DNA from: an uncultured Verrucomicrobiae bacterium
GTDB lineage: Bacteria > Verrucomicrobiota > Verrucomicrobiia > Limisphaerales > Palsa-1400
Length of the DNA stretch: 64,000 nucleotides
Assembly: GCA_963707025.1 (NCBI GenBank)
Contig: CAVPOM010000004.1
Span: 64,001-128,000 of the forward strand
Reading direction: 5' to 3'
Shown piece by piece: positions 1-11,309 of the stretch. Position 1 is the first letter of the stretch. Each line of letters starts with the position of its first letter. Under the pieces are notes generated by a model. It was given only the letters and a program-made list of their open reading frames with translations, searched no databases and was not told the origin of the DNA. The position numbers were made by a program, and so were the translations under genes.

Positions 1-958
1 GCATGAAAGTCGCGCAGGTGTAGCGCAGCGCATGAAAGTCGGCATACCGGCCTTGCTCATCCCGGTAGGCAACGCCAACCCGCTCCGAATCCACTTTGAG
101 CCGGGAGGCACGAGGAATTCCATTGCGGAAAACCAAATCCGACGGCGACCACTGCGCCGGGCGAAAGTCTTTCAATGCCCCGACGATTTCAGGCATCAGG
201 AAAACAGGCTCTTCTCTTTTGTTCTTTGCCGTTTCCGCACGAACCACGATCAGCGGATTTTGCGCGTCAAGCCGGACATCGCCCCATTGAAGCTGTTTCA
301 GTTCTTCCTGCCGCAATCCCGTTGCCGCCGCAGTGAAATAAATTATCCCGCGCGGCCCCGACCCCGCGATCAGTTTGCGCAATTCCTCATCCGTGAATGC
401 GCGGCGCACCCGTTTCTTCTTCCCGCGCTCATCCACCTTGCCGACGAATTTCAGCGGGTTGGACTTGATCCGCCCCGCCCGCTCCATCCAGTTGAGGAAC
501 GAAATCGTACCCTGCAAATAATGGTTCATTGTCCGCGCCGCCGCTTTCTGCTTGTTGCGCCAGGCGATGAATGAATCCGCCGTGACATTGCCGGCCAGCT
601 TCCAGCCGCAATCGTCCAGGAGCCGGAGAATCCGCGCCTTGAGCAACCGCGCCCCGCGCCCACCCCGACCAGCCCGCCCGCGCGTCAGCAGATCAGCTTC
701 GTAATCGTTCAAATGCTCGCGCAATGGGCGTTGCGCGGCGTCTCTCACAAGTTTTGGCTCGATGATGCCCGCCGCCTCACGCTCGCGCTCCTGGATGAAA
801 GCGTGCGCCTTTTTGTCGGCAACCTGGAAGTCGGTGACGCCAAGCGACACCCACTTGTCCACCGGCATGTCGCCCAGGCGATAACGCAAATAATAAAACC
901 GTGTTTCCAGAAGTTTTCCACGCCGCCGAGACCGTCGTTTTTCAATGGAGAAGATCAT
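1..958 (-). CDS. int: Tyrosine recombinase/integrase (3' end runs off window; not in ORF track)
   Basis: Manual minus-strand translation from ATG 958: MIFSIEKRR...RRAFTDEEL...TGLRQEEL...TAKNK...ADFHALRYTCATFM, showing the catalytic R, K and H-x-x-R motifs; ATGA overlap with xis. Confidence 0.93.
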   Translation of the reverse strand, partial: MIFSIEKRRSRRRGKLLETRFYYLRYRLGDMPVDKWVSLGVTDFQVADKKAHAFIQEREREAAGIIEPKLVRDAAQRPLREHLNDYEADLLTRGRAGRGGRGARLLKARILRLLDDCGWKLAGNVTADSFIAWRNKQKAAARTMNHYLQGTISFLNWMERAGRIKSNPLKFVGKVDERGKKKRVRRAFTDEELRKLIAGSGPRGIIYFTAAATGLRQEELKQLQWGDVRLDAQNPLIVVRAETAKNKREEPVFLMPEIVGALKDFRPAQWSPSDLVFRNGIPRASRLKVDSERVGVAYRDEQGRYADFHALRYTCATFM

Positions 959-1146
959 GCCGCTCCTTTCATCATAATTTGCTCAATGTCACTTGACCGA
1001 AACCGCACCGCACCGCGGATTTTAACCACCGCCAGTTTCCCCGACGCCACCAGTCTTTCCACGTTGCGGGTGGAACAGGCCAGCAGACGCGCTACTTCTT
1101 TCTTTGTCACCAATCGCAGCGATGCACGGTTAGATTCATTTTCCAT
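955..1146 (-). CDS. xis: Excisionase-like HTH_17 DNA-binding protein
   Basis: LVTKKEVARLLACSTRNVERLVASGKLAVVKIRGAVRF; stop overlaps int start. Confidence 0.85.
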   Translation of the reverse strand: MENESNRASLRLVTKKEVARLLACSTRNVERLVASGKLAVVKIRGAVRFRSSDIEQIMMKGAA

Positions 1147-1157
1147 ATTCTTTCCTC

Positions 1158-1541
1158 TCAAGCATCGGAAGCCTCTTGGTCCATCTCCGCGACCTCATCA
1201 TCCGGCATCCCCTTCGTGTAAACGCGGTAAACCGCATTGTTATCCGCCGCCACGCCGTTCTGCGTCAGCCATTCCGCAATTTCCCGGAAGGTGAAGCCCT
1301 TGTCCTTCCGAAGGACGGTAATCGTCTCATGGTAATCTGCAAGCAGCTTCCGGTTGGATTCCTTTTCCGCTTGTTCCAACAGGAAATGCGGCGGTGGGAA
1401 TTCCAGATGCGTAACCACATCACCCGGAGGAGATGCGGCCTTCTGTTCACCTTTTGCGCTCTTATCACTCAGAGAAGCCGCAGGGGATGGCGCGACCGCC
1501 ACGACTTCTTTACCTTTTGATTTGAATTGTTTTTTCTTCAT
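1158..1541 (-). CDS. Small HTH-like DNA-binding protein
   Basis: LRKDKGFTFREIAEWLTQNG...NAVYR; co-oriented with xis-int. Confidence 0.65.
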   Translation of the reverse strand: MKKKQFKSKGKEVVAVAPSPAASLSDKSAKGEQKAASPPGDVVTHLEFPPPHFLLEQAEKESNRKLLADYHETITVLRKDKGFTFREIAEWLTQNGVAADNNAVYRVYTKGMPDDEVAEMDQEASDA

Positions 1542-1646
1542 GCGGGGAATCTAAATGAATAAAGTAATTAAAGCAAGCAATAAAATGAGAAAAAGCAAAA
1601 GCATCCCAAATTGGACCCAAAAACCACAAACCGTGAGGCATTCCCC

Positions 1647-1800
1647 GCTGAGTTTTCCCGTGTCGTCATCCGGCTTGCTCAAGGCAGGAAGGCCAAGCCG
1701 AACGCCAACACGCGAAAACTCAGCCCCGACAAGTGCCTGGTCGTGCCGTCATTGTCCGCAGGATTGCGCCCCGGCTGCCCTCGCAACACTGCGGTCAATG
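1647..1800. other. Two tandem long imperfect hairpins (candidate single-strand origin)
   Basis: GCTGAGTTTTC 1647-1657 pairs with GAAAACTCAGC 1714-1724, with inner CGTGT/ACACG and CGGCTTG/CAAGCCG; CATTG-CCGCAG-TTGCG 1750-1768 pairs with CGCAA-CTGCGG-CAATG 1782-1800. Confidence 0.55.
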
Positions 1801-2242
1801 CCGTCACCGCCAGGGAGGGCTTCGCCAGTTCCGTTCGCGTCGGATTTATTCGGAGTGCCCGCATCACAAGTTCGGGTGCCGTGTCAATTTGAGATTCAGT
1901 TCAGTAAAGGTACGCAATTCAGGGTGAACATTTGCCATCAAATGGTGAGTATTCTCGCGCCTCGTTCACTATTTTTTATGGGTTATGCTGGCGATTCGAT
2001 CAGACGAGGCGTTTAGGATTGTGCCAAACATTACACTTCGTCTCGCATGGTCCCTCCTAATCTCGCGAAGGATGTTGCAGGTTCGCCATGTGACCTTAAC
2101 CCAATTGTTACGGCCAATTTCGGGGTTCTTGCTTGACACGCGCCAAGCCAGTGAAACAATCGGTGCAAGGGCAGGGTAGCTGTCTTAGACAATGAGAAAG
2201 GCATTTGACAGTCCGGCGGTTGGGTATCAGGCCGACACACGG

Positions 2243-2497
2243 CTAACGATGCCTTGCGATTTTGGGTGGCAGCAATTCCCGCACCTCGGCTCTCAGGGCC
2301 TCAGCCAGGATCATCAGTTCCGAATCCGACACGCATCGCAGTTGCGCCTCAATTTTCGAGAGCGTCGCCCGGCTCAACTCCAATCCCAAAACGGAGCATC
2401 GCGCCGCAAACATCTCCTGCGTCAGCTTCATTTGATAACGCAGCCTTCTGACTTGCGGCCCGACGACATTGCGCGGACTTTTTTTTCTTTCTGCCAT
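2243..2497 (-). CDS. XRE-family HTH transcriptional regulator
   Basis: NVVGPQVRRLRYQMKLTQEMFAARC...LSRATLSKIEAQLRCVSDSEL; divergent from cargo operon. Confidence 0.88.
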   Translation of the reverse strand: MAERKKSPRNVVGPQVRRLRYQMKLTQEMFAARCSVLGLELSRATLSKIEAQLRCVSDSELMILAEALRAEVRELLPPKIARHR

Positions 2498-2623
2498 GCT
2501 CCGATTTTGGAGCGTGACAGTACCGAGAATTGGCGGCGCATTTGCTCCAATTTTGGAGCCACTTTTTGAGGGAGAAATCCAGAGCAAAAACTAGGCAGTC
2601 AACCACAAACAAAAGGACACGAA

Positions 2624-4873
2624 ATGAAAATGAGATTCAGCAGTAATCAATTGAGCATCGGCGGAGCATTGTCGTTATGGCTTTTATTAGTTCCATCTGT
2701 AATCGCCCAACCGACCTTGCCCGACCCCGGAACGAACACCTTCAACCAACCATCCCAAGCGCAAATCGCGGCGGCAGAGGCGGCACAGGCCGCGCAGCAG
2801 GCGTCAAATTACGCAACCTTTTACGCGCCCTGGGTCGTCCAGGATTTGCAGATGGGCGATGGTTCGCAACTGACGGGGGGCGCTCTCCAAATACAAGCGC
2901 AGAGCGATTTGCTGGTTTTGTCCACCAACCTCGCTGTTTTTCAGGCGGCGCAACAAACAGCGGTGACGGCCTATCTCGCCAGCGCCCCCTTTTCCTTCGT
3001 CCAGTCGTGGATTGACACCAATGGCGTCATGAGTTACATTGACCGCATTGATGAAGGTGGAGCGATGGCCATTAAACAAACACATAATCTCGAATCGGCG
3101 CAGACCGTGGGCGCTCAGAAATTATGGCCAGGCGGCAGCACAGGTCTCAATCTTGCAGGAACCAATGTTCTTATGGCGCAATGGGACGGTGGGGATTTGC
3201 TTACCAATCATTCTGAATTTGCAACCAATGGCCAACGGGCTTTCCTGCTTGACGGGCCAAGCGGATACGGAGTCCAAGACCACCCAACGCATGTCGCCGG
3301 AACAATGATGGCATGGGGGGTTAATGCGAGTGCGAAAGGCTTCTCGAATCGGGGCAAGGTTACTGAATCGTATTTCGGCAAAGACCTTGCGGAGATGCCG
3401 CGAGTGGCCGCAACCAACGGGGTGCGCGAAAGCAATCACAGCTACGGTTATACCGGAGGATGGGGAATCATTCAAATTAGTGGAAATTATTACTGGTTGT
3501 GGAACGGCGATGTCGTTGTTAGCACCAGCCAGGATTGGCATTTTGGATTCTACACCGGCGTCTCACAAACTAACGACCAGATCATTTACACGGCGCAAAC
3601 ATATCTGCCAGTTTTTTCGGCTGGAAATGAAAACGGCCCCGGTCAGGACGGCCCGGCCACCCAACCTTTCGGCCATTATGAATACTCGAATGGTGTAGTG
3701 GTGAGTGACACCACGCACGTTCGCCCGTTAAATGACGCGCAAGGCGGATTCAACACTTTGACAGGGTATCAGGTCTCAAAAAACGAGCTTGTGGTTGGCG
3801 CGGTGGGCCAAAACACAAATGGATATACCAGCACGAACAGCGTTACGAATGCCATTTTTTCATCAATGGGGCCGACCGCCGATGGCCGCATCAAACCGGA
3901 TGTGGTTGCCGACGGCGTAAATGTATATTCCACCTATTCGAGCAACACGGCCTCGTATGGCCTGGATTCAGGCACGAGCATGGCTGCGCCCGCCGTGACT
4001 GGTACGCTTGGACTTCTCACCGGATTCTATAATCAGCTTTATCCGACCAACGCCCCGCTGCTTTCCGGCACAAATGCGCCCCTATCTTCAACGCTCCGGG
4101 GCATTCTAATCCACACCGCAGACCAACTCGGCACCAACATTGGGCCAAGCTACATTTATGGATGGGGATTGCTTGACGCGGTAGCCGCCGCCAATTTGAT
4201 CACCAATAATTACGCCAGCGCTTCTCTCGCCCACATTAAGGAAGTCCGGCTAATCAGCGGCGACCATATCGAATTCCCGGTGACGCTGACCAACGGCGTG
4301 CCTTTCCGCGCCACGACTGCTTGGACTGACCCGCCTGGCTCACCCACTGCCGTCAGTGTCAATCCGACCAACCGCATGTTGGTCAACGACCTTGATTTGC
4401 GGGTCATCAGTCCGAACGGAACAACAAATTTCCCTTATGTTTTGAATCGAAATTCGCCCGCGAGCGCGGCGACAAAGGCGGACAACGCGGTGGACAATGT
4501 GGAACAGGTTTACATCCCGACTCCGACCAACGGAACATACACGGTCCGCATCACTCACAAGGGCAATCTTGTGAACGACCACGGCCAGACAAGTTACCAG
4601 AACCTCTCGATAATGCTCTCAGGAAATATCGCGCTTCCCCCGACGACGCCGAATATTTTCTCGATCTATCCGATTACCACGTCCAACACGGTGGCCCTTG
4701 CTTGGTCCTCAGATGTGGGTAGGGTTTATCGCGTGCAATACGTGGACAACATTACCTCCGGTGTCTGGCAAAATGCGACAGGCGAACTGAGCGCAACCAA
4801 GACGAACACGGTGGCGACGATTCCGGTCTCCGGTGTGACCAATCGGTTTTACCGCATCGCTCAGGTTCGATGA
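2624..4873 (+). CDS. Secreted S8 family serine peptidase (subtilase) with C-terminal FYR domain
   Basis: Signal peptide; triad motifs WDGG, DHPTHVAGT, GTSMAAP; GRIKPDVVA; ends RFYRIAQVR. Confidence 0.92.
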   Translation: MKMRFSSNQLSIGGALSLWLLLVPSVIAQPTLPDPGTNTFNQPSQAQIAAAEAAQAAQQASNYATFYAPWVVQDLQMGDGSQLTGGALQIQAQSDLLVLSTNLAVFQAAQQTAVTAYLASAPFSFVQSWIDTNGVMSYIDRIDEGGAMAIKQTHNLESAQTVGAQKLWPGGSTGLNLAGTNVLMAQWDGGDLLTNHSEFATNGQRAFLLDGPSGYGVQDHPTHVAGTMMAWGVNASAKGFSNRGKVTESYFGKDLAEMPRVAATNGVRESNHSYGYTGGWGIIQISGNYYWLWNGDVVVSTSQDWHFGFYTGVSQTNDQIIYTAQTYLPVFSAGNENGPGQDGPATQPFGHYEYSNGVVVSDTTHVRPLNDAQGGFNTLTGYQVSKNELVVGAVGQNTNGYTSTNSVTNAIFSSMGPTADGRIKPDVVADGVNVYSTYSSNTASYGLDSGTSMAAPAVTGTLGLLTGFYNQLYPTNAPLLSGTNAPLSSTLRGILIHTADQLGTNIGPSYIYGWGLLDAVAAANLITNNYASASLAHIKEVRLISGDHIEFPVTLTNGVPFRATTAWTDPPGSPTAVSVNPTNRMLVNDLDLRVISPNGTTNFPYVLNRNSPASAATKADNAVDNVEQVYIPTPTNGTYTVRITHKGNLVNDHGQTSYQNLSIMLSGNIALPPTTPNIFSIYPITTSNTVALAWSSDVGRVYRVQYVDNITSGVWQNATGELSATKTNTVATIPVSGVTNRFYRIAQVR

Positions 4874-5766
4874 AAATTGCCCCACCCACCCCGAACGGCC
4901 GGTGTTGGCTTTGGCAGGCACTGGCCGTTTTATCGGCATTGCCGATAATTGGTGAGGCGCACGGAATTATTTATGAACAGTTGCCACCTTCACCCAGCCT
5001 GGGTTTGGTGCAAGATACGAACGGCAACTTCACCGATCCCTTTGCACCGTATGATGCCCAAGGCTTGAGGTTATGGGGCAATGCGGGAACTCCGGCTATT
5101 TACAATCTCGTTTTTAATGGGCAAGCGGCTTTCACTTTCACCTCACAAGACACTGGTTTTGACATTGACCCGATAGGAAGCAACAAAGTGATCGGTGGCT
5201 ATCTTGACAATTTTGGCGCGGCTGGGGCATATCCGCTGTCAGGTGGCGCTTTAATCGGACCGGATACCGGGACCAACTATACTTGGATTGGCCATGACCC
5301 AGTATTGGGGGGATTGGTTCTGGCGACCGAAAGAGACAGTGGCACCATTGGAAGCCCCATTTTATTCACCGGGCCTTTCGCCGGAATAACAGCCGCGTAT
5401 ATTGGACTTCAATTTTACTCTGACAATCAGGTCTATTACGGCTGGGTTCGAGTTGGCGCACCCGCTACCATCAATGGCGGCTGGATTTACGATTATGCGT
5501 ACCAAACTCAACCCAACACACCGATTCTCGCGGGCGCGGTGCCGCTCGCGCCATTAGCGACACCCCACATTGTTCGACCGGGGAATCTCCGGCTTAACTG
5601 GCAATCACAGACCAACATGGCTTATCAGGTGCAATTCAAGGAAGAACTGGATTCACTGTTTTGGACCAATCTGGACCTCACCATCATCGCCACCGCCACC
5701 AATACGTCAGCCGATGTCCCGATGGTCGGCACTTCCAGGTTTTACCGCGTGGTACAAAATCAATGA
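4870..5766 (+). CDS. Secreted protein (YIGLQF...YGWVRV...DYAY domain) with C-terminal FYR domain
   Basis: Signal peptide; ATGA overlaps on both sides; ends RFYRVVQNQ. Confidence 0.8.
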   Translation: MKIAPPTPNGRCWLWQALAVLSALPIIGEAHGIIYEQLPPSPSLGLVQDTNGNFTDPFAPYDAQGLRLWGNAGTPAIYNLVFNGQAAFTFTSQDTGFDIDPIGSNKVIGGYLDNFGAAGAYPLSGGALIGPDTGTNYTWIGHDPVLGGLVLATERDSGTIGSPILFTGPFAGITAAYIGLQFYSDNQVYYGWVRVGAPATINGGWIYDYAYQTQPNTPILAGAVPLAPLATPHIVRPGNLRLNWQSQTNMAYQVQFKEELDSLFWTNLDLTIIATATNTSADVPMVGTSRFYRVVQNQ

Positions 5767-6734
5767 AGGCAATACCGATTCCGTCTGCAAAACTCATGCG
5801 CGTCATGCTCCTTGCGTTCGGCTGCATTTTCGCGGCGCAGGTGTCGCAGGCGCAGTCCTCGTTTGCCGGGGTTTTACTCGCAGGCAACGGCTCAGGAATC
5901 GTTGCGGGCACCGTCCAACTCAGCGTGAATGGCGGGCAGATAACATTTCAGTCAACCCTCTATGAGCCTTGGGTCACAAACACCACCCTTGCGACGATTT
6001 TGGAAGTGCAGGGCAACCATATCTGCTTTGATCTTGGAACCGGCACACCAGGCACTTGGCCTGTGCAAGAGTTTGTCGGGCCGCTTCCCGGCCTCAGCAC
6101 AGCCCCGGCCCCAAGCGAACGGTTTCCGGGTCTTGAGCAAATGCCGGGGCCACAAACGCTTTCCGCAGGCAGGCGCTTTGCCGGTGCATTCACCGCGTTT
6201 CCTAGTTTGGAGAATGCGTTATTGACCAGCGGCGGAAAAATTTCGCTCCACGTAAGAGGAACGGTGAACGGCATGGAAAACCCGACTGCCGTAGAGGTAT
6301 TGGTAACAACAAGCCCGCGAATCTCCAATCAGTTTGCGGCGATTCTCAGCGCCACTAACGAAATTCCACCCCACACAAGCCCGTATCACGGCACCGGGTC
6401 GTTCACGCTTGAGAGCAATTTCCTCACTTACAATCTGGCCCTGGACGCCGGTTTGCGCCCAACGCACGTAAGTATATTCGGCCCGGCCAGCCCGCCGCCA
6501 AACGAACTGGCACTCGCTGCCGACTCCCCCGGCAATTCCGGTTTCGTGATTTATCGCGGTCAGATCAATCTGACCGGCGCAAAGGTTGAGGAACTCCGGC
6601 GCGGCGAGCTTTATGTCAATGTTTTTACAGCCCTACATCCGCATGGAGAGTTGCGCGGCTCCATTCTTCCGATTCCAATACCCGTCCCAAACGCCCCCGG
6701 CATTCAGCCTGTTATCAGCGTCTCTCCAAAATAG
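5763..6734 (+). CDS. Secreted CHRD-domain protein
   Basis: Start ATG 5763 overlaps upstream stop; FAAILSATNEIPP...GTGSF...GELYVNVFTALHPHGELRG is the CHRD signature. Confidence 0.8.
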   Translation: MKAIPIPSAKLMRVMLLAFGCIFAAQVSQAQSSFAGVLLAGNGSGIVAGTVQLSVNGGQITFQSTLYEPWVTNTTLATILEVQGNHICFDLGTGTPGTWPVQEFVGPLPGLSTAPAPSERFPGLEQMPGPQTLSAGRRFAGAFTAFPSLENALLTSGGKISLHVRGTVNGMENPTAVEVLVTTSPRISNQFAAILSATNEIPPHTSPYHGTGSFTLESNFLTYNLALDAGLRPTHVSIFGPASPPPNELALAADSPGNSGFVIYRGQINLTGAKVEELRRGELYVNVFTALHPHGELRGSILPIPIPVPNAPGIQPVISVSPK

Positions 6735-6884
6735 GCCAAGCAGCCGCGCAATGCTTGACCGTCTGCTTGCGGCACACAATTTCCTCACTCACCCGCCGTC
6801 TTCGATAGCGGCCTGTCCCACCGATTCACATCAGGAAACTTGTGAATCTTCCACCCCCGCGCCGTCAGCCATTTCTCCATGCCC

Positions 6885-8288
6885 TTACGCATCGGCCACG
6901 ACCACCGGACGTTCCCATCCGTCAGTAGCGGAAACTCGATCATGCACTCGTCGAGAACCCCGCCTTTTGTTATTCGCCATTATTCCATCTTGCTCACCTC
7001 CTTTCCAAAAATCATCCTGTGTCAGGACGCGCTGCCATGCGGCCTCTCTTTCCAATTCCGCCCGCCGCTTCCCGGACACCTTCTTTTTCGAGTGCCGCAC
7101 ATCCTCCAGTGTCAATTCAGAGACATGCAGCCATAATGGCAGGCGCGTCACCCCGTACAAGGCCACCTGTCGCCCAGGTACCTGCAAATTGTGCATCTTG
7201 ATGGCATCCACCAGAGCGGGGGCCATGCCTTCCTCATCCTCGCGGAAAACCACCGCCGGAAACAGATTCCCAAACCGAAACGCCCATTTCGGCCCGACCA
7301 ACTCCGCAATGTTGTCCTCCGTGATCCTGTTCCCATCCAGATTCAAGACCTCGACACTCTGGCGCACCATCTCCCGCCATAGTTGGCCACCTTGCGTTTT
7401 CTTGTTCCAGCCAAACTTGCAAGCCCACGGCGGACTTCTCATCTTGACCGCGCCAGGCAAATTCGGCCCATATTTGCAGCGAGGCAAAAGGGGTGCTTTT
7501 CTCCAATGCCCCCAATAACTGACCCGGCGCGCACCTTTATCCTCTGGCGTCCGGTTTTGGAAATCCTTCATCATGTATTTCGCGCAATAGCGTCCGGCTG
7601 CTTGCCCATCGCCTTTGACCGGCTGGCTTTCGCACCGACCAAACCCATAGTTTGGAGCATTGACACGAAGCCACTCCCACACTTCGCGCAAAGCCGCATT
7701 TGCTGTGTCATAGACCGGCGGGCGCACCGGCTTTCCGTCTTTCCCTTTCGGCGGGAAACAGGCGTCCCAATCAATGTTGCCCCGGATGTCGCGCTCGAAA
7801 ACGGCGACCAGGTGCGCGTGCATGGTTTGGTCTTTATGGCGCTCCCGCATGGTGATGCCCAACTGGAATTTTCGGGTGAAGGCCGACATGAAGGAATGCA
7901 AGCGCCGTTGGAATTCGTGCCGGTCTTTCACCTTGACAAACTTTCCGTTGTGGAATTCACCGCAGGTGATCGTAATCAAAAGCAAATGTTCCGGGCCGAA
8001 AGTGTCTGCCATCCATGCAACATTGCGCATGAAGGCTTCCATCTGTTTTGGCAGAGTGCCGGGCAGGACCGTCTTAGCTGCTCCATTCTCCTGAGTGGTT
8101 GCAGATGTTTCAGAAGGACAAGGAAGAGGAAGGGGAAGGCCGGGGCGGGCGGCCCTGAAGGGCCGCGCCGCCCCCGGCCTTTCCGCTTCGCCAGTTCGCT
8201 CCACATCTGACCGCAGAACCGGCGAGCAGTGGTGCTCGCTGTCCGGTTCTGCTCGCTCTACTTCGCCGCCGTGCCGCTCCGGTGTCAC
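6885..8288 (-). CDS. rep: HUH-superfamily rolling-circle replication initiator
   Basis: Motif I LLITIT, motif II ERHKDQTMHAHLV, motif III YCAKYMMK; exact start uncertain. Confidence 0.8.
   Translation of the reverse strand: MTPERHGGEVERAEPDSEHHCSPVLRSDVERTGEAERPGAARPFRAARPGLPLPLPCPSETSATTQENGAAKTVLPGTLPKQMEAFMRNVAWMADTFGPEHLLLITITCGEFHNGKFVKVKDRHEFQRRLHSFMSAFTRKFQLGITMRERHKDQTMHAHLVAVFERDIRGNIDWDACFPPKGKDGKPVRPPVYDTANAALREVWEWLRVNAPNYGFGRCESQPVKGDGQAAGRYCAKYMMKDFQNRTPEDKGARRVSYWGHWRKAPLLPRCKYGPNLPGAVKMRSPPWACKFGWNKKTQGGQLWREMVRQSVEVLNLDGNRITEDNIAELVGPKWAFRFGNLFPAVVFREDEEGMAPALVDAIKMHNLQVPGRQVALYGVTRLPLWLHVSELTLEDVRHSKKKVSGKRRAELEREAAWQRVLTQDDFWKGGEQDGIMANNKRRGSRRVHDRVSATDGWERPVVVADA
8136..8181. 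other. GC-rich inverted repeat within rep 5' region (candidate double-strand origin)
   Basis: AAGGCCGGGG-CGG-GCGGCCC-tgaa-GGGCCGC-g-CCG-CCCCCGGCCTT, next to minus-strand CTTCCTTGTC. Confidence 0.4.
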
Positions 8289-8515
8289 TGGCCCCCTTTA
8301 CTTGTGGCCGTGTCAACAATGGCGAGGATTGCGACCTTGAGCGCGGCAGGTAATTCACCCCAGGCAGCGACTACTTGCGACAGGTTTCGCCAGTCGTTGC
8401 CCTGAATCTGTGCGCGTGGTTGTGTATAGTCCCTTTCACCTTCGTTCGTAACAGGTTGATTTTCGGCAGGTTGTGGATTTTGCGGGGAAGGTTCGAATCC
8501 CTTCGCTCGCTCCAT
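8285..8515 (-). CDS. Short ORF reading through attR; probable integrase C-terminal tail
   Basis: MERAKGFEPS (antisense of the tRNA end)...LSQVVAAWGELPAALKVAILAIV; its TGA overlaps rep GTG (GTGA 8285-8288). Confidence 0.6.
   Translation of the reverse strand: MERAKGFEPSPQNPQPAENQPVTNEGERDYTQPRAQIQGNDWRNLSQVVAAWGELPAALKVAILAIVDTATSKGGQ
8490..8514 (+). repeat. attR core: 3' fragment of tRNA-Gly
   Basis: GGTTCGAATCCCTTCGCTCGCTCCA = T-loop, 3' acceptor strand CGCTCGC, U discriminator, CCA; no 5' half (GCGAGCG) upstream. Confidence 0.85.
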
Positions 8516-8697
8516 CTCCATCAACGACTTACGTCGATGGACATGGTTTTGCAACAGGTTTGCAACATCTCCGCCCCCCCGCCGGCCAAAAACCGGTCCC
8601 GACCCCGGAAGGTCCAAAAACTCGGTAGTGGTACAGTTTGAGGGGTGAGGCGTTACTTTCCACTTGATTCCGCCAGGCAGGGGCGCAAGGTTGCGCC

Positions 8698-8873: not shown

Positions 8874-9338
8874 CTATTTTTCAGGCTCCACTGTGAGCGC
8901 CCAAACAAGGGCAATGACCCAGCCAACACCAGTCCAGCCGAGCAAAAGATTTAAGACGAGTATCGCCATGTGGTTGCGTTTCTTTCGTCCAATGTAGGCA
9001 GGGATGAAATAAATACAAAATGCCACGGCCAACATGACTAGGGTGAGAACCAGGCTGAAAACGAGAGCCATCGTCCGGCCCATTATCATCCCAATCGTTT
9101 CCTCCTCGTCTGATCTGTCAAAAAACGCCCCGCAGAACGCAATCGCGAAAATTGCAGCCACACCCAAAATAGTCCAGGTTTTCTTGGAGATGGGCTTTTT
9201 GGGTAATTCAACGTGGAGCGGTGTGGCCTTTCGGCAATGTGGGCAGACGATGACTATTCCACGCTGATAGTTGGCGGCTTCAAATTCAATTCCGCCTTCG
9301 CAATGGACACACCAAGCTCGCAGCAACGGTTCTGACAT
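8874..9338 (-). CDS. Superinfection immunity-type membrane protein with N-terminal zinc ribbon
   Basis: CVHC...CPHC, then YFIPAYIGRKKRNHMAILVLNLLLGWTGVGWVIALVWAL (T4 Imm-like signature). Confidence 0.85.
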   Translation of the reverse strand: MSEPLLRAWCVHCEGGIEFEAANYQRGIVIVCPHCRKATPLHVELPKKPISKKTWTILGVAAIFAIAFCGAFFDRSDEEETIGMIMGRTMALVFSLVLTLVMLAVAFCIYFIPAYIGRKKRNHMAILVLNLLLGWTGVGWVIALVWALTVEPEK

Positions 9339-9368
9339 AATTCCTTTCGCAAGCGGGAAGGAAAAAGG

Positions 9369-9464
9369 CGCGGACCCAGCGCACCCGAACGAGGCACTGC
9401 GAAGCGCCTTGAGGAGAATGCGCCGAGCCGCGGGTCTCCTCTGAAATTTCGCAGTTTTCGTTCG
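9369..9464 (-). ncRNA. C4-like antisense/leader structured RNA
   Basis: Minus-strand ~17-bp stem with several G-U pairs enclosing hairpin AGGCGC-UUCGCA-GUGCCU; complementary boxes lie upstream and at the imm RBS. Confidence 0.55.
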
Positions 9465-9702
9465 ACCCTTACCGCTACGCTAAAATATCAATCGCAACTT
9501 TTAATCCCCGCTTTTTTTGAGTCAAGAAATTCCCATCAACAAAATGAAACCTCCAAACCTTACAGTCGCGCAAAAAGCCCAAATTCTTGGCGATCCGTTG
9601 CCCGGCGTCACCGGCGATAAATTGCTTGCCGCTGCCGCAATCCGTCAATATCCTCCCATAATCCGCACCAATCCTCGAATTATTAGGCCGCGGTATGACC
9701 GT

Positions 9703-10476
9703 ATGACGATATTGGCTGGTATAATCTGCAAGAGGTTCATCGTTCTTGGCGCGGACAGCCTATGGACAAATTCCACAGATGGAAGCATGGTCGAGGCTGA
9801 TAAAATCAGCATTGTAAATTTCAACGACGATCAGGTCCTGGTCGGGCAGGCCGGATTAAGGCCCATCACGATGGAGGTCGTGGAAACCTTACGCAAAAAG
9901 GCAAGGGGCAAAAAGATCACAGAACCTCGCGCCGTGACCAAAATTGTCAAGGACGCCATCCGCGAAACAAAAACCTCTTTGGACGAGGCCGCAACAGGCT
10001 TTGGGACAACGCATGGTGCAGCGCTTATGATTGCGTTTTACGCGCAGAACCGGCCCCAGCTTTATATATGCCACCTCTTTAATACTGGCGTCCCAGAACC
10101 AGCGCCGTCGCATTATGCGACTGCGGGCTGCGCCGATCTCCTTGCGAATTATTTTCTTAGGGAGTTTTCTGAACCAGGCGCGGAGGATGAATTGCAACTC
10201 GCGGCTTTGATCTACACCATCGCAAAGGTGAAGGAATATAGCGTGTATTGCGGGGGTCCAACCACTATAAAATATCTGACAACATTTTCGACTGGGCTGG
10301 ATTCTCCGCGTGTTGCAAAGGCAACCGCCCTTGCCCCCGAATTCATCGAGCGGGTCGAGAAGAAATTGGCGTCCGTGGATTTGAACACCAAGAACGCAAG
10401 AAACAGAGAAATATACGCCGCCTTGCGGGAAGCCTCGGATGAATTTGCCAAGGAGAATTGGAAGTCACCAAAATGA
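9703..10476 (+). CDS. Proteasome-beta-subunit-like Ntn hydrolase
   Basis: M-T1-ILAGIICKRFIVLGADS...KI...GQAG...YATAGCAD...YCGG; true start is ATG 9703, not 9517. Confidence 0.75.
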   Translation: MTILAGIICKRFIVLGADSLWTNSTDGSMVEADKISIVNFNDDQVLVGQAGLRPITMEVVETLRKKARGKKITEPRAVTKIVKDAIRETKTSLDEAATGFGTTHGAALMIAFYAQNRPQLYICHLFNTGVPEPAPSHYATAGCADLLANYFLREFSEPGAEDELQLAALIYTIAKVKEYSVYCGGPTTIKYLTTFSTGLDSPRVAKATALAPEFIERVEKKLASVDLNTKNARNREIYAALREASDEFAKENWKSPK

Positions 10477-11309
10477 ACAAACTGAGCGTGGAGGCACGGG
10501 TGATGATCGTCAGATGTTTAGTGGAGGGCAATTCGCTCCGGTCCACCGTCCGAATGACGGACATTCACCGCACAACGATTCAAAAGCTCTTGGTGGAGCT
10601 TGGTGTGGTCTGTTCCGCATATCAGGACAAGGCTTTTCGCAACCTGAAGTGCAGGCGGTTGCAGTGCGATGAAATTTGGGCATTCGTGGGCTGCAAGCAA
10701 AAGAACACGACGCCGGAAACCCGGATGGTTAAACAATGGGGTGATGTTTGGACTTGGACGGCGATGGACGCGGAAACAAAGCTCGTGCCGTGCTGGTTCG
10801 TCGGCAACCGGGACAGCAGTTCTGCCTATCATTTCATCAACGATCTGGCCGGAAGGCTCGCCAGCCGCATCCAGTTGACCACAGACGGCCATAAGCCTTA
10901 CCTGGAGGCCGTGGAAGGTGCATTTGGGGCGGACATTGATTATGCGCAATTGCAGAAGATTTATGGGGTTCAGGGCGGCCCGAAAGAGAGCGCGGAAGTC
11001 CGGTATAGCCCAGCCCAGTGCATGGGGGCGCGCCGGGCGATCATCTCCGGTCATCCCGATTATGACCACATTTCCACCAGCTTCACGGAGCGTCAAAACC
11101 TCACAATGAGGATGTCCATGCGCCGGTTCACGCGCCTGACCAACGCCTTCTCAAAGAAGGTCGAGAACCATGAGGCGGCGGTGGCTCTCCACTTCATGCA
11201 CTACAATTTCGCCAGGATTCACATGTCGCTTCGCGTCACCCCTGCGATGGAGGCCGGCGTGGCCGATCACGTTTGGAGCGTCGAGGAAATTATCCGCCTT
11301 TTAGGGTGA
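10473..11309 (+). CDS. IS1-family DDE transposase
   Basis: MNKLS..LVEGNSLRS, QCDEIWAFV, LTTDGHKPY, ERQNLTMRMSMRRFTRLTNAFSKK. Confidence 0.92.
   Translation: MNKLSVEARVMIVRCLVEGNSLRSTVRMTDIHRTTIQKLLVELGVVCSAYQDKAFRNLKCRRLQCDEIWAFVGCKQKNTTPETRMVKQWGDVWTWTAMDAETKLVPCWFVGNRDSSSAYHFINDLAGRLASRIQLTTDGHKPYLEAVEGAFGADIDYAQLQKIYGVQGGPKESAEVRYSPAQCMGARRAIISGHPDYDHISTSFTERQNLTMRMSMRRFTRLTNAFSKKVENHEAAVALHFMHYNFARIHMSLRVTPAMEAGVADHVWSVEEIIRLLG

Follow-up and report, generated by a model that had tools for sequence, protein, structure and literature searches.

We found that the left part of the window, a 64,000-nucleotide stretch of contig C4 from an uncultured Verrucomicrobiae bacterium, holds a mobile element that sits in a glycine tRNA gene and carries its attachment site inside its own integrase gene. 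The integrase (Int) almost certainly exchanges its C-terminal tail between the integrated and the excised state. We read the whole as an integrative rolling-circle element, one member of a large PVC family, in which attP lies in int, the tail is swapped on excision and the replication gene (rep) is licensed on the circle only, and we give this reading a probability of about 0.6.

The host tRNA-Gly(GCC) is intact and lies where a preliminary description of this DNA had predicted it, to the left of the window (C4:63642-63718, + strand, 283 bp away); tRNA was the sole family matched in an Rfam search. Its 3′ end is identical to the 26-bp attR core at 8490..8515 (+ strand), and the attL core (C4:63694-63719) lies outside the window. 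Joining the cores in silico restores the tRNA exactly and releases an 8,796-bp circle (~8.8 kb); the element may still be able to excise. Two copies of a direct repeat, which are candidate arm-type or accessory binding sites, flank the core and lie 234 bp apart on the circle, one at 8375..8428 (no strand assigned) and the second in the int 3′ end (C4:63805-63866). Three minus-strand genes run leftward out of the window: a 127-aa hypothetical that is conserved in Verrucomicrobiota and is the first gene of the operon (1158..1541; homologue in L030), an excisionase-like HTH_17 gene (xis, 955..1161, E=1e-9) whose stop overlaps the int ATG at 958 (ATGA), and int (1..958, codons 1-319), which extends to G000:C4:63669. 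All three genes of the row previously described as HTH-xis-int are thus present; the HTH of the first was not confirmed, this ORF having no Pfam or PHROG match. An AT-rich putative promoter region with no consensus match lies upstream of it at ~1545-1620.

Int is a tyrosine integrase (PF00589, E=2e-12, 47.7 bits against a cut-off of 27.1). A search of 50,697 phage records gave a single weak match to it and none that was close, and a plasmid search gave only 7 weak matches. Its catalytic residues R216, K245, H309, R312, H335 and Y344, invariant in 23 sequences, all precede the core, which lies 210 nt from Y344; attP, that is the core with its flanking repeats, falls within a C-terminal extension of ~120 codons downstream of the catalytic tyrosine. 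The core is read in the int frame and int has no stop before attL, which strongly supports the earlier suggestion that attP lies inside the integrase ORF. When attL and attR are joined, int remains in frame into the detached tail, and the two C-termini differ as had been foreseen: integrated Int has 429 aa, the last 7 of them encoded by the antisense strand of the tRNA gene, and circle Int is an in-frame fusion of 489 aa in which 67 residues take the place of those 7 and which stops at the TGA at 8285-8287. An open 75-codon frame is by itself weak evidence, as 33% of frames drawn at random from this contig are open too; what goes beyond chance comes from comparison with related elements. We also considered a degron at the integrated C-terminus and dropped the idea: the ends vary from ~10 to 70 residues past the core start and share no common ending.

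The same layout is common to many related soil and peat bacterial elements, which are non-viral, 2.5-14 kb in size and target many tDNAs. Integrases read into the tDNA in 75 of 81 cases in our genome set and in 31 of 31 in the metagenome set. All 28 read-through att pairs (the window's included; 9 lineages at 60% identity) carry the tail motif in the Int frame, and so do five of five additional pairs, although in one of these the motif is a variant that escaped the pattern. Three registers are used for the Int-tail frame, yet it is kept in all 33 pairs, including L202, where a frame change at the same tRNA-Gly(GCC) is compensated.

The tail itself comprises 76 codons from the core (8285..8515, − strand) and includes a conserved 23-residue helical motif at 8315-8383 in which W52 and L55 are invariant. 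The ORF reported here earlier is present, with its TGA overlapping the rep start; it runs 8515-8285 and not 8514-8285. The motif named at that time (VVAAW..LP.A.K..IL..V) was borne out by family comparisons as the detached C-terminal tail of PVC integrases. A tail profile matched 7,042 representatives at E ≤ 0.001 and had no Pfam or PDB match, and Atlas searches with the tail and the 127-aa ORF named no family at 0.9 or more. The pN/pS ratio of the motif is 0.32 in the Int frame versus 1.2 and 2.3 in the other sense frames, a substitution pattern that marks the tail as being under protein-level selection, although a value of 0.46 in one antisense frame counts against this. An in-frame start with an SD-like word could give 12 of the 28 detached tails a start of their own, the window's tail not being among them, and five have no in-frame start whatsoever. 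Additionally, natural ORFs fuse Int, core and tail, one at full length (P0002, 490 aa, PF00589) and four that include the catalytic Tyr region (P0143, P0045, P0098 and P0104); these lie on short contigs, where tandem copies could explain them instead of circles. A search with the P0002 tail region for full-length fusions returned, among 13 candidates, P0002 itself only. A single-sequence AlphaFold model of P0002 was unusable (pLDDT 38), and predicted self-association of two copies of tail residues 28-76 scored 0.30 (mark 0.42).

Immediately behind the tail, rep encodes an ORF2/G2P-like protein of 467 aa from GTG 8288 (6885..8288, − strand). Motif I (7962-7982), the HUH motif (7809-7820) and a YxxKY motif with two conserved tyrosines (7575-7589) are all on this strand, and H84, H86, Y161, Y165 and K168 (trimmed-query numbering) are invariant in 27 Rep sequences, which identifies Rep, as judged from its sequence, as a two-tyrosine HUH rolling-circle initiator. 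The window's Rep scores 21.7 against PF23343, where the gathering cut-off is 27.8; all 18 motif-selected Reps (a set that includes it) match this family and 10 reach the cut-off. The family matches, phrog_3419 and PF23343, point to viral replication initiators. A structure search against BFVD gave 87 matches at E ≤ 0.001, and among the best 50 of these the three named ones are all replication proteins; against PDB, HUH-domain matches appeared only at E > 0.01. Residues conserved among Rep homologues are found ahead of the first internal ATG. Just two in-frame ATG, GTG or TTG starts precede these residues: GTG 8288, with an SD-like word, and GTG 8204, without one. The usual third-position GC pattern is absent from the first 80 Rep codons, which counts against our reading. 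The tail-rep junction (8285..8296, − strand) consists of a G-rich SD-like word at 8292-8296 and a GTGA in which the rep start (8288-8286) and the tail stop (8287-8285) overlap, confirming the overlap noted before. A candidate double-strand origin lies in the rep 5′ end (8117..8250, − strand; z = -4.4), comprising a hairpin at 8215-8250, a GC-rich inverted repeat at ~8137-8179 and a conserved CTTGTC at 8117-8122, and may contain the nick site. A 52-aa ORF overlapping the end of rep (6785..6943, − strand) has no family match and may not be a gene.

We propose that integration into the tRNA-Gly 3′ end would split a hypothetical-xis-int/tail-rep operon. The left end would retain the promoter, xis and a catalytically complete Int with its tRNA-derived residues, and the right end would retain a headless tail and rep. 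Excision would restore the helical tail to Int and make rep, with its candidate origin, the last gene of the xis-int transcript; ribosomes that have completed Int could there re-initiate on the overlapping GTG of rep. One recombination would in this way change the form of Int and license rolling-circle replication on the circle only. By analogy with IntP and IntX of Mx8, the tailed form probably favours integration or synapsis on the circle, and the layout as a whole probably holds replication back for as long as the element remains in the chromosome.

Comparison of 70 tails bears on this proposal. A rep gene lies downstream of the tail on the same strand in 56 and on the opposite strand in none; no Rep was detected for the other 14. 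The RTGA overlap occurs at 49 of the 70 tail stops versus 639 of 2234 background stops. Of 18 overlapping starts that could be tested, 15 share the Rep frame and read through to the HUH domain without a stop (3 are out of frame). Only 27 tails have a Rep start that falls -12 to +25 nt from the tail stop, and in 29 the Rep lies 0.3-2 kb beyond it. At 10 loci an antisense type II TA cassette stands between tail and rep, and because it intervenes, direct translational coupling is broken there. A relay of translation across the cassettes through chained antisense ORFs was rejected (6/12 by a lenient count, null ~0.6; 1/12 by a strict one). Since a Rep-less 2.2-kb element retains the tail, the tail is not there just for Rep.

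The earlier claim that Rep is silent when integrated and switched on after excision stands in part: the orientation, the conserved SD-like word and the RTGA overlap fit it, and Rep's own SD-like word, the TA cassettes and the possible starts in 12/28 tails do not. Altogether, the evidence leans toward Rep expression that depends on excision, with rep transcribed from the xis-int promoter and silent in the integrated element. From attR to rep the minus strand shows nothing that resembles a promoter, and neither hypothetical-xis-int nor the tail shows a terminator-like site; this is weak evidence, promoter and terminator counts being at shuffle level (7 vs 5.2 and 14 vs 12.3). Neither a circle nor an int-rep transcript was seen in four of 20 listed public runs, all of them contigs of relatives and none with as much as half of the sequence words. 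One joint, from 12523 to 3804 in L002 coordinates, has attP geometry, but its 32-nt short side is the core plus a few bases, and it is ambiguous because an ordinary attL contig explains that side equally. IMG/VR scans for free viral forms turned up 4 distant integrases and 3 DNA-pattern loci, of which one has a tail; none showed an int-tail fusion.

The arrangement of tail and rep can also be read differently. The tail swap may be real and rep may be served by a weak or repressible promoter of its own, located within the tail or at the junction; the overlap would then be compact packing handed down by an ancestor resembling a plasmid, and Rep would not be gated by excision. The SD-like word at the Rep start suits such an arrangement, as does the junction that reappears behind TA cassettes, where 4/5 have the GTG in the Rep frame. 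In C12 the same rep start overlaps the stop of another gene in place of the tail, and Rep modules swap at the junction: an int 91% identical goes with another Rep in L187, and this Rep (84%) goes with a different tail in L021. We nevertheless consider this reading rather unlikely, given that rep, wherever detected, follows the tail and shares the strand of int, that the stretch from attR to rep contains no promoter consensus, and that, by the analogy of Tn916, Rep made from an integrated copy should harm the host (PMC11658703).

Two further readings concern the roles of Rep and of the tail. The HUH protein may be mainly a relaxase with which a helper conjugative element or phage mobilises the circle, a role suggested for the relaxases of streptococcal IMEs that resemble RCR initiators. 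The switch would then gate transfer and not copy number, which is compatible with the circle-licensing reading. Virion genes, as expected of an inovirus or other prophage, are lacking: family searches found no virion or morphogenesis genes in the window's element and no capsid, morphogenesis or T4SS family in 76 interior ORFs of at least 150 aa from relatives, so that spread needs a helper; IMEs with a tyrosine integrase and an RCR-type relaxase have been described (PMC5357655). The same two sets of ORFs contain no match to a TcpA or VirD4 coupling protein, and the two tyrosines with the PF23343 and phrog_3419 matches indicate viral replication initiators, which makes a relaxase role improbable. 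That the stretch behind attR is DNA only, carrying arm-type sites, or a small stand-alone gene, with the fusion to Int incidental, we regard as very improbable. The repeat part does behave as DNA, its copies having a fixed spacing of 234, 222 or 221 bp and falling in different frames at 221 bp, and gene callers list most tails as stand-alone proteins; frame retention in 33/33 pairs, compensated shift included, protein-level selection, tails without any start and the natural fusions all argue for a part of Int.

Both halves of the circle-licensing reading have precedents, attP inside int in Mx8 and replication genes turned on by circularisation in SNJ2 and Tn916; their union in this PVC family was not found in print. 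Mx8 targets a tRNA gene and has attP at a C-terminal position in its integrase, whose two forms are named IntP and IntX. Its tyrosine integrase, like that of Mx9, has attP in the coding sequence, and integration creates a new int 3′ end and leaves an active enzyme of altered specificity (PMC6070905, PMC4383910). The likeness is one of layout, with the core in the int frame 3′ of the catalytic Tyr of a tyrosine integrase and a tail at the other end. Mx8, however, is a tailed phage of ~50 kb, whereas the elements here are small and non-viral, use many tDNAs and three registers, and have a helical tail that matches no Pfam family and ends in a stop overlapping the gene behind it; we saw no report of a replication gene coupled to the Mx8 tail. 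For the pleolipovirus SNJ2, excision joins the int end and the other end into an operon ending in a rolling-circle initiator, an ORF spans attP, and circularisation is needed for replication (PMC13107129). There, as here, co-oriented int and rep ends are joined without a gap. SNJ2 is archaeal with a Rep_trans-like Rep (Rep-Arvir); its attP falls not in int but in a new ORF of its own, orf26, that lies downstream, and it has a start site inside int and an origin after rep, in contrast to a bacterial element with HUH motifs and fold, attP in int itself and a candidate origin in the rep 5′ end.

To our knowledge, int of Tn916 stays intact and no reading frame crosses its joint. Its nicking and rolling-circle genes are promoterless in the integrated state, and once the element has circularised, Porf7 drives their transcription across the joint; premature expression or rolling-circle replication from the integrated element harms the host (PMC11658703); unlike the element here it is described as conjugative, with a terminator and antiterminator. 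The 'suicidal' integrases of SSV1, pTN3 and pT26-2 have an att site within the integrase gene that in the SSV type parts Int(N) from the catalytic Int(C), and such enzymes were called exclusively archaeal (PMC8371274), whereas here all catalytic residues stay on one side and the tail alone is exchanged. In BPs-type mycobacteriophage immunity, attP lies in a gene co-transcribed with int and integration alters a C-terminus (PMC9262239). That gene is the repressor, which loses an ssrA-like tag, and the system is described as lacking both an excisionase and arm sites. The element here differs in having its attP in int, in carrying xis and in having arm-like repeats within the coding sequence. Streptococcal IMEs are small, with tyrosine integrase, excisionase and RCR-type protein in a compact row (PMC5357655). 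In their description relaxase, xis and int are successive, mostly with TcpA, in contrast to rep and int at opposite ends when integrated, another Rep family and no coupling protein found here.

The element would be a minimal bacterial form of both tricks that can readily be cloned and tested. It accounts for a large protein family that lacks annotation, as many of the 7,042 representatives appear to be integrase fragments called hypothetical. Integrases mined from these genomes for engineering would be the tail-less form, which may be the wrong one for integration, and the several natural Rep and frame swaps open the function of the post-catalytic Int tail to comparative study. More tentatively, the attP region (~250 bp) may serve three roles in a phylum-scale PVC mini-element family, as recombination site, as coding linker of Int and as restart point onto a plugged-in Rep module drawn from several HUH Rep families. 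Closing it would add a helical domain that converts Int from its excision form to its integration form; the junction would also be a slot for antisense TA pairs. If so, integrase state, replication and addiction modules would all depend on one recombination, without a dedicated regulator.

The interior of the element holds an HTH_3 (Cro/CI-type) regulator (2243..2518, − strand), divergent from a cargo block (2624..6734, + strand) that is convergent with rep. The cargo comprises an S8 subtilase (2624-4873), a 298-aa hypothetical (4870-5766) and a CHRD-domain protein ending at 6734, all on the + strand.

The preliminary description had proposed that int lacks a stop of its own before attL, that circularisation fuses it in frame to a detached tail, and that a tRNA-Gly with the 3′ end seen at attR lies left of the window; the sequence agrees with each of these. 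ARAGORN calls an intact tRNA-Gly(GCC) 283 bp left of the window (C4:63642-63718, C4 being the source contig and the window C4:64001-128000), and the 26-bp sequence of its 3′ end (C4:63694-63719) has an exact second copy at 8490-8515. The tyrosine integrase frame (minus strand, from 958) is open through the attL core, continues on the antisense strand of the tRNA and ends only at C4:63669-63671, yielding 429 aa; all catalytic residues are encoded upstream of the core, with Y344 210 nt before it. Joining the cores in silico yields an 8,796-bp circle and regenerates the tRNA letter for letter. In the joined form Int exchanges 7 C-terminal residues for 67 encoded in the tail (8515-8285, minus strand), and the lengthened 489-aa protein stops at 8285-8287, overlapping the GTG at 8288 that starts the 467-aa HUH ORF, rep (8288-6885, minus strand). 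Since an equally long open frame has a 33% chance of occurring here, the case for fusion rests on comparison.

The closest Int homologues belong to genomes with Verrucomicrobiota or Limisphaerales in their titles, and the less close ones to Spartobacteria, Opitutae and Planctomycetota, so that the host is presumably a verrucomicrobium. Two sets of related genomes held relatives of the tail or Int in 19 of 41 and 17 of 31 members, and a set of 301 from the order held them in 29. The 191 Int matches in fetched loci collapsed to 115 distinct proteins. In 81 of these a tRNA or tmRNA 3′ end soon follows the catalytic Tyr, and 75 of the 81 read past it, as do 31/31 in a separate metagenome set. We proposed att pairs for 32 elements and removed four (a false repeat in one case, and an Int frame ending ahead of the core in the other three). 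All 28 remaining pairs, the window element included, carry a 23-residue helical motif in the Int frame of the detached tail; the motif pattern was composed after viewing the tails, and the reading frame was not chosen. These pairs represent nine lineages at 60% identity, with elements of 2.5-14.2 kb that target tRNA-Gly, Asp, Pro, Ser, Lys, Ala and Met and tmRNA in all three registers; an additional five pairs are consistent with an in-frame tail. At one relative, L202, the tRNA-Gly(GCC) core is the same as that of the window, Int enters it in another register and the tail is shifted correspondingly, a compensated frame change that is the strongest single sign of selection for the fusion. Within the 23-codon motif, variation is highest at third positions, and pN/pS is 0.32 in frame, whereas the two remaining sense frames give 1.2 and 2.3, as calculated from 65 non-independent pairs, with one antisense frame also low (0.46). 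The tail had no match in Pfam or PDB. We put the probability that the tail swap is real at about 93%.

Natural fusions of Int and tail were also observed. Of 7,999 longer proteins scored in a search, 3 matched. One 490-aa protein (P0002, PF00589) has the tail at its C-terminus, with tRNA-antisense-like residues and both direct repeats in between. Among the best 150 of 7,042 tail-profile matches, P0143, P0045, P0098 and P0104 extend from the Int catalytic region through into the tail, and about eight more take in the C-terminal arm of Int. The nine fusion proteins that we looked up all lie on short contigs, so that a circle and a tandem copy fit them equally.

The direct repeats flank the core on both sides at a spacing of 234, 222 or 221 bp (310 bp in a single planctomycete case), and in this behave as DNA-binding sites would. 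The fixed spacing is kept while the frame differs at 221, and an attP of lambda-like size therefore appears to be written inside int; a review indicates that an attP of this kind would severely constrain an overlapping protein (PMC9262239). In one remnant (L023:2430-2945, the same as L104), the core was apparently lost by recombination between the two arm-like repeats, and the catalytic end of Int now runs straight into the tail helix.

An ATGA or GTGA overlap ends 49 of 70 distinct tails vs 639 of 2,234 background stops. Rep starts -12 to +25 nt from the tail stop in 27/70 and lies 0.3-2 kb beyond it on the same strand in 29/70; it was not detected in 14/70, and was on the opposite strand in none of the 70. 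In loci that have the overlap, the origin motif and Rep near one another, 15 of 18 overlapping starts share the frame of Rep and are open (one further case was set aside). Modules are also exchanged at the tail-rep junction: L187 has an int 91% identical to that of the window with a different Rep family, and L021 has a window-type Rep with a different tail. Because L202 has the tail without any Rep, we conclude that the tail serves Int and that direct translational coupling is frequent without being required; the conserved feature is rep downstream of attP on the int strand.

The spacers between tail and rep consist either of small co-oriented ORFs in series or, at 10 loci, of type II toxin-antitoxin pairs in antisense orientation (ParE, HicAB, PemK, DUF433/DUF5615). 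These pairs lie exactly at the junction (L003, G000:C13:6824-7359 in the source assembly; L005, L028, L029, L032, L083, L085, L092, L023, L238), several bordered by duplicates of the last 15-45 nt of the tail; at five of these junctions the tail 3′ end is repeated before rep, up to ~45 nt. The junction looks like a cassette slot for such pairs. Conserved co-oriented ORFs of 90-125 aa without a Pfam match occur between tail and rep in L014, L020, L066, L081, L083, L086, L122, L130, L153, L200, L238 and L259; from position and size, our guess is that they encode single-strand DNA binding proteins. In two tRNA-Pro elements from different genomes (L004:9468-9797 and L025), the overlapping start yields 52 codons and the Rep frame opens 30 nt later, an identical break that reflects decay common to both, or else a different start or a frameshift.

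The 467-aa Rep matches PF23343 below cut-off; all 18 motif-selected Reps, that of the window included, match this family, 10 of them at or above cut-off, and 13 of 27 homologues match phrog_3419 (rolling-circle initiation). The HUH and two tyrosines are invariant in the alignment, and the structure model (pLDDT 78) resembles viral replication proteins and, weakly, solved HUH domains. Upstream of the first internal ATG there are already conserved residues, and the only ATG/GTG/TTG starts ahead of these are GTG 8288, which has a G-rich SD-like word, and GTG 8204, which has none. The 5′ end of rep folds much more strongly than shuffled sequences (z = -4.4). Of 27 coupled Reps, 24 have CTTGTC or a near variant within their first 420 nt, in most cases directly after a strong hairpin; this word resembles the nick consensus of phiX174/pC194-type origins and is a candidate nick site.

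On the circle the genes would form a row without gaps: a 127-aa hypothetical ORF, xis, ATGA, int-tail, GTGA, rep. Scans that overall stayed at shuffle level gave nothing resembling a terminator in hypothetical-xis-int or the tail, and nothing resembling a promoter from attR to rep. A single transcript would cross attP on the circle and be cut by integration. Keeping Rep off while integrated has an experimental precedent for its rationale in Tn916, whose report describes reduced host fitness from rolling-circle replication in the integrated state and replication genes read only once circularised (PMC11658703). Public contigs gave no usable attP joint and no usable transcript. We favour, with moderate confidence, gating of Rep expression by excision. 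By eye, a weak -35/-10-like pattern below scan threshold lies at 1541-1580 and leaves ~6 nt ahead of the ATG that opens the operon; were it the promoter, the transcript would be leaderless.

The tail exchange is like that of Mx8, described as having attP within int and gaining a new 3′ end (PMC6070905, PMC4383910); SSV is also reported to have attP within int (PMC8371274). The predicted replication control is like that of Tn916 and of the archaeal virus SNJ2, for which a 2026 report describes restoration on excision of a replication operon ending in a rolling-circle initiator (PMC13107129). The feature is real and well supported, and combines what is known separately from Mx8, SNJ2 and Tn916. 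The element lacks the defining features of prophages and of SSV-type suicidal integrases, and its Rep those of Rep-Arvir; no virion, T4SS or coupling-protein family was matched in it or in 76 interior ORFs of relatives. Neither this PVC family nor the coupling of an Int tail to rep was described in the full-text literature searched, which comprised mainly open-access main texts, with most matches screened by their entries; tables of island-mapping papers could contain such elements.

At least three more sister elements bounded by att sites are present in the source assembly: one of tRNA-Gly type at the edge of a contig, one at tRNA-Pro, and one at tRNA-Asp whose int is frameshifted. These and several partial modules of tail or rep lie at C13:1-7587, C2:97438-103972, C5:270100-277630, C6:820150, C6:496700, C12:232481, C9:386020 and C18:304500. 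Among the cargo of related elements (L066:6587-14432 and L071:3408-11552) are CRISPR genes (Cas12b-like RuvC domain, Cas4-Cas1) and Kdp potassium-uptake genes. A planctomycete member with its tail in frame (L167:8421-9557), in which no HUH Rep was detected, has a Prim-Pol gene instead. The tRNA-Gly 3′ end occurs a third time 98.6 kb beyond attR, and a 10-bp motif is present just inside both ends (C4:171057-171088 and window 8516-8560); this is probably the trace of an island of greater age and size at this tRNA, which holds a five-tRNA cluster (C4:150761-153834), and no integrase of the window-element family was found in it. To the right of attR, 8874-11309 encodes a superinfection-immunity-domain protein, a proteasome-fold protein and an IS1-like transposase.
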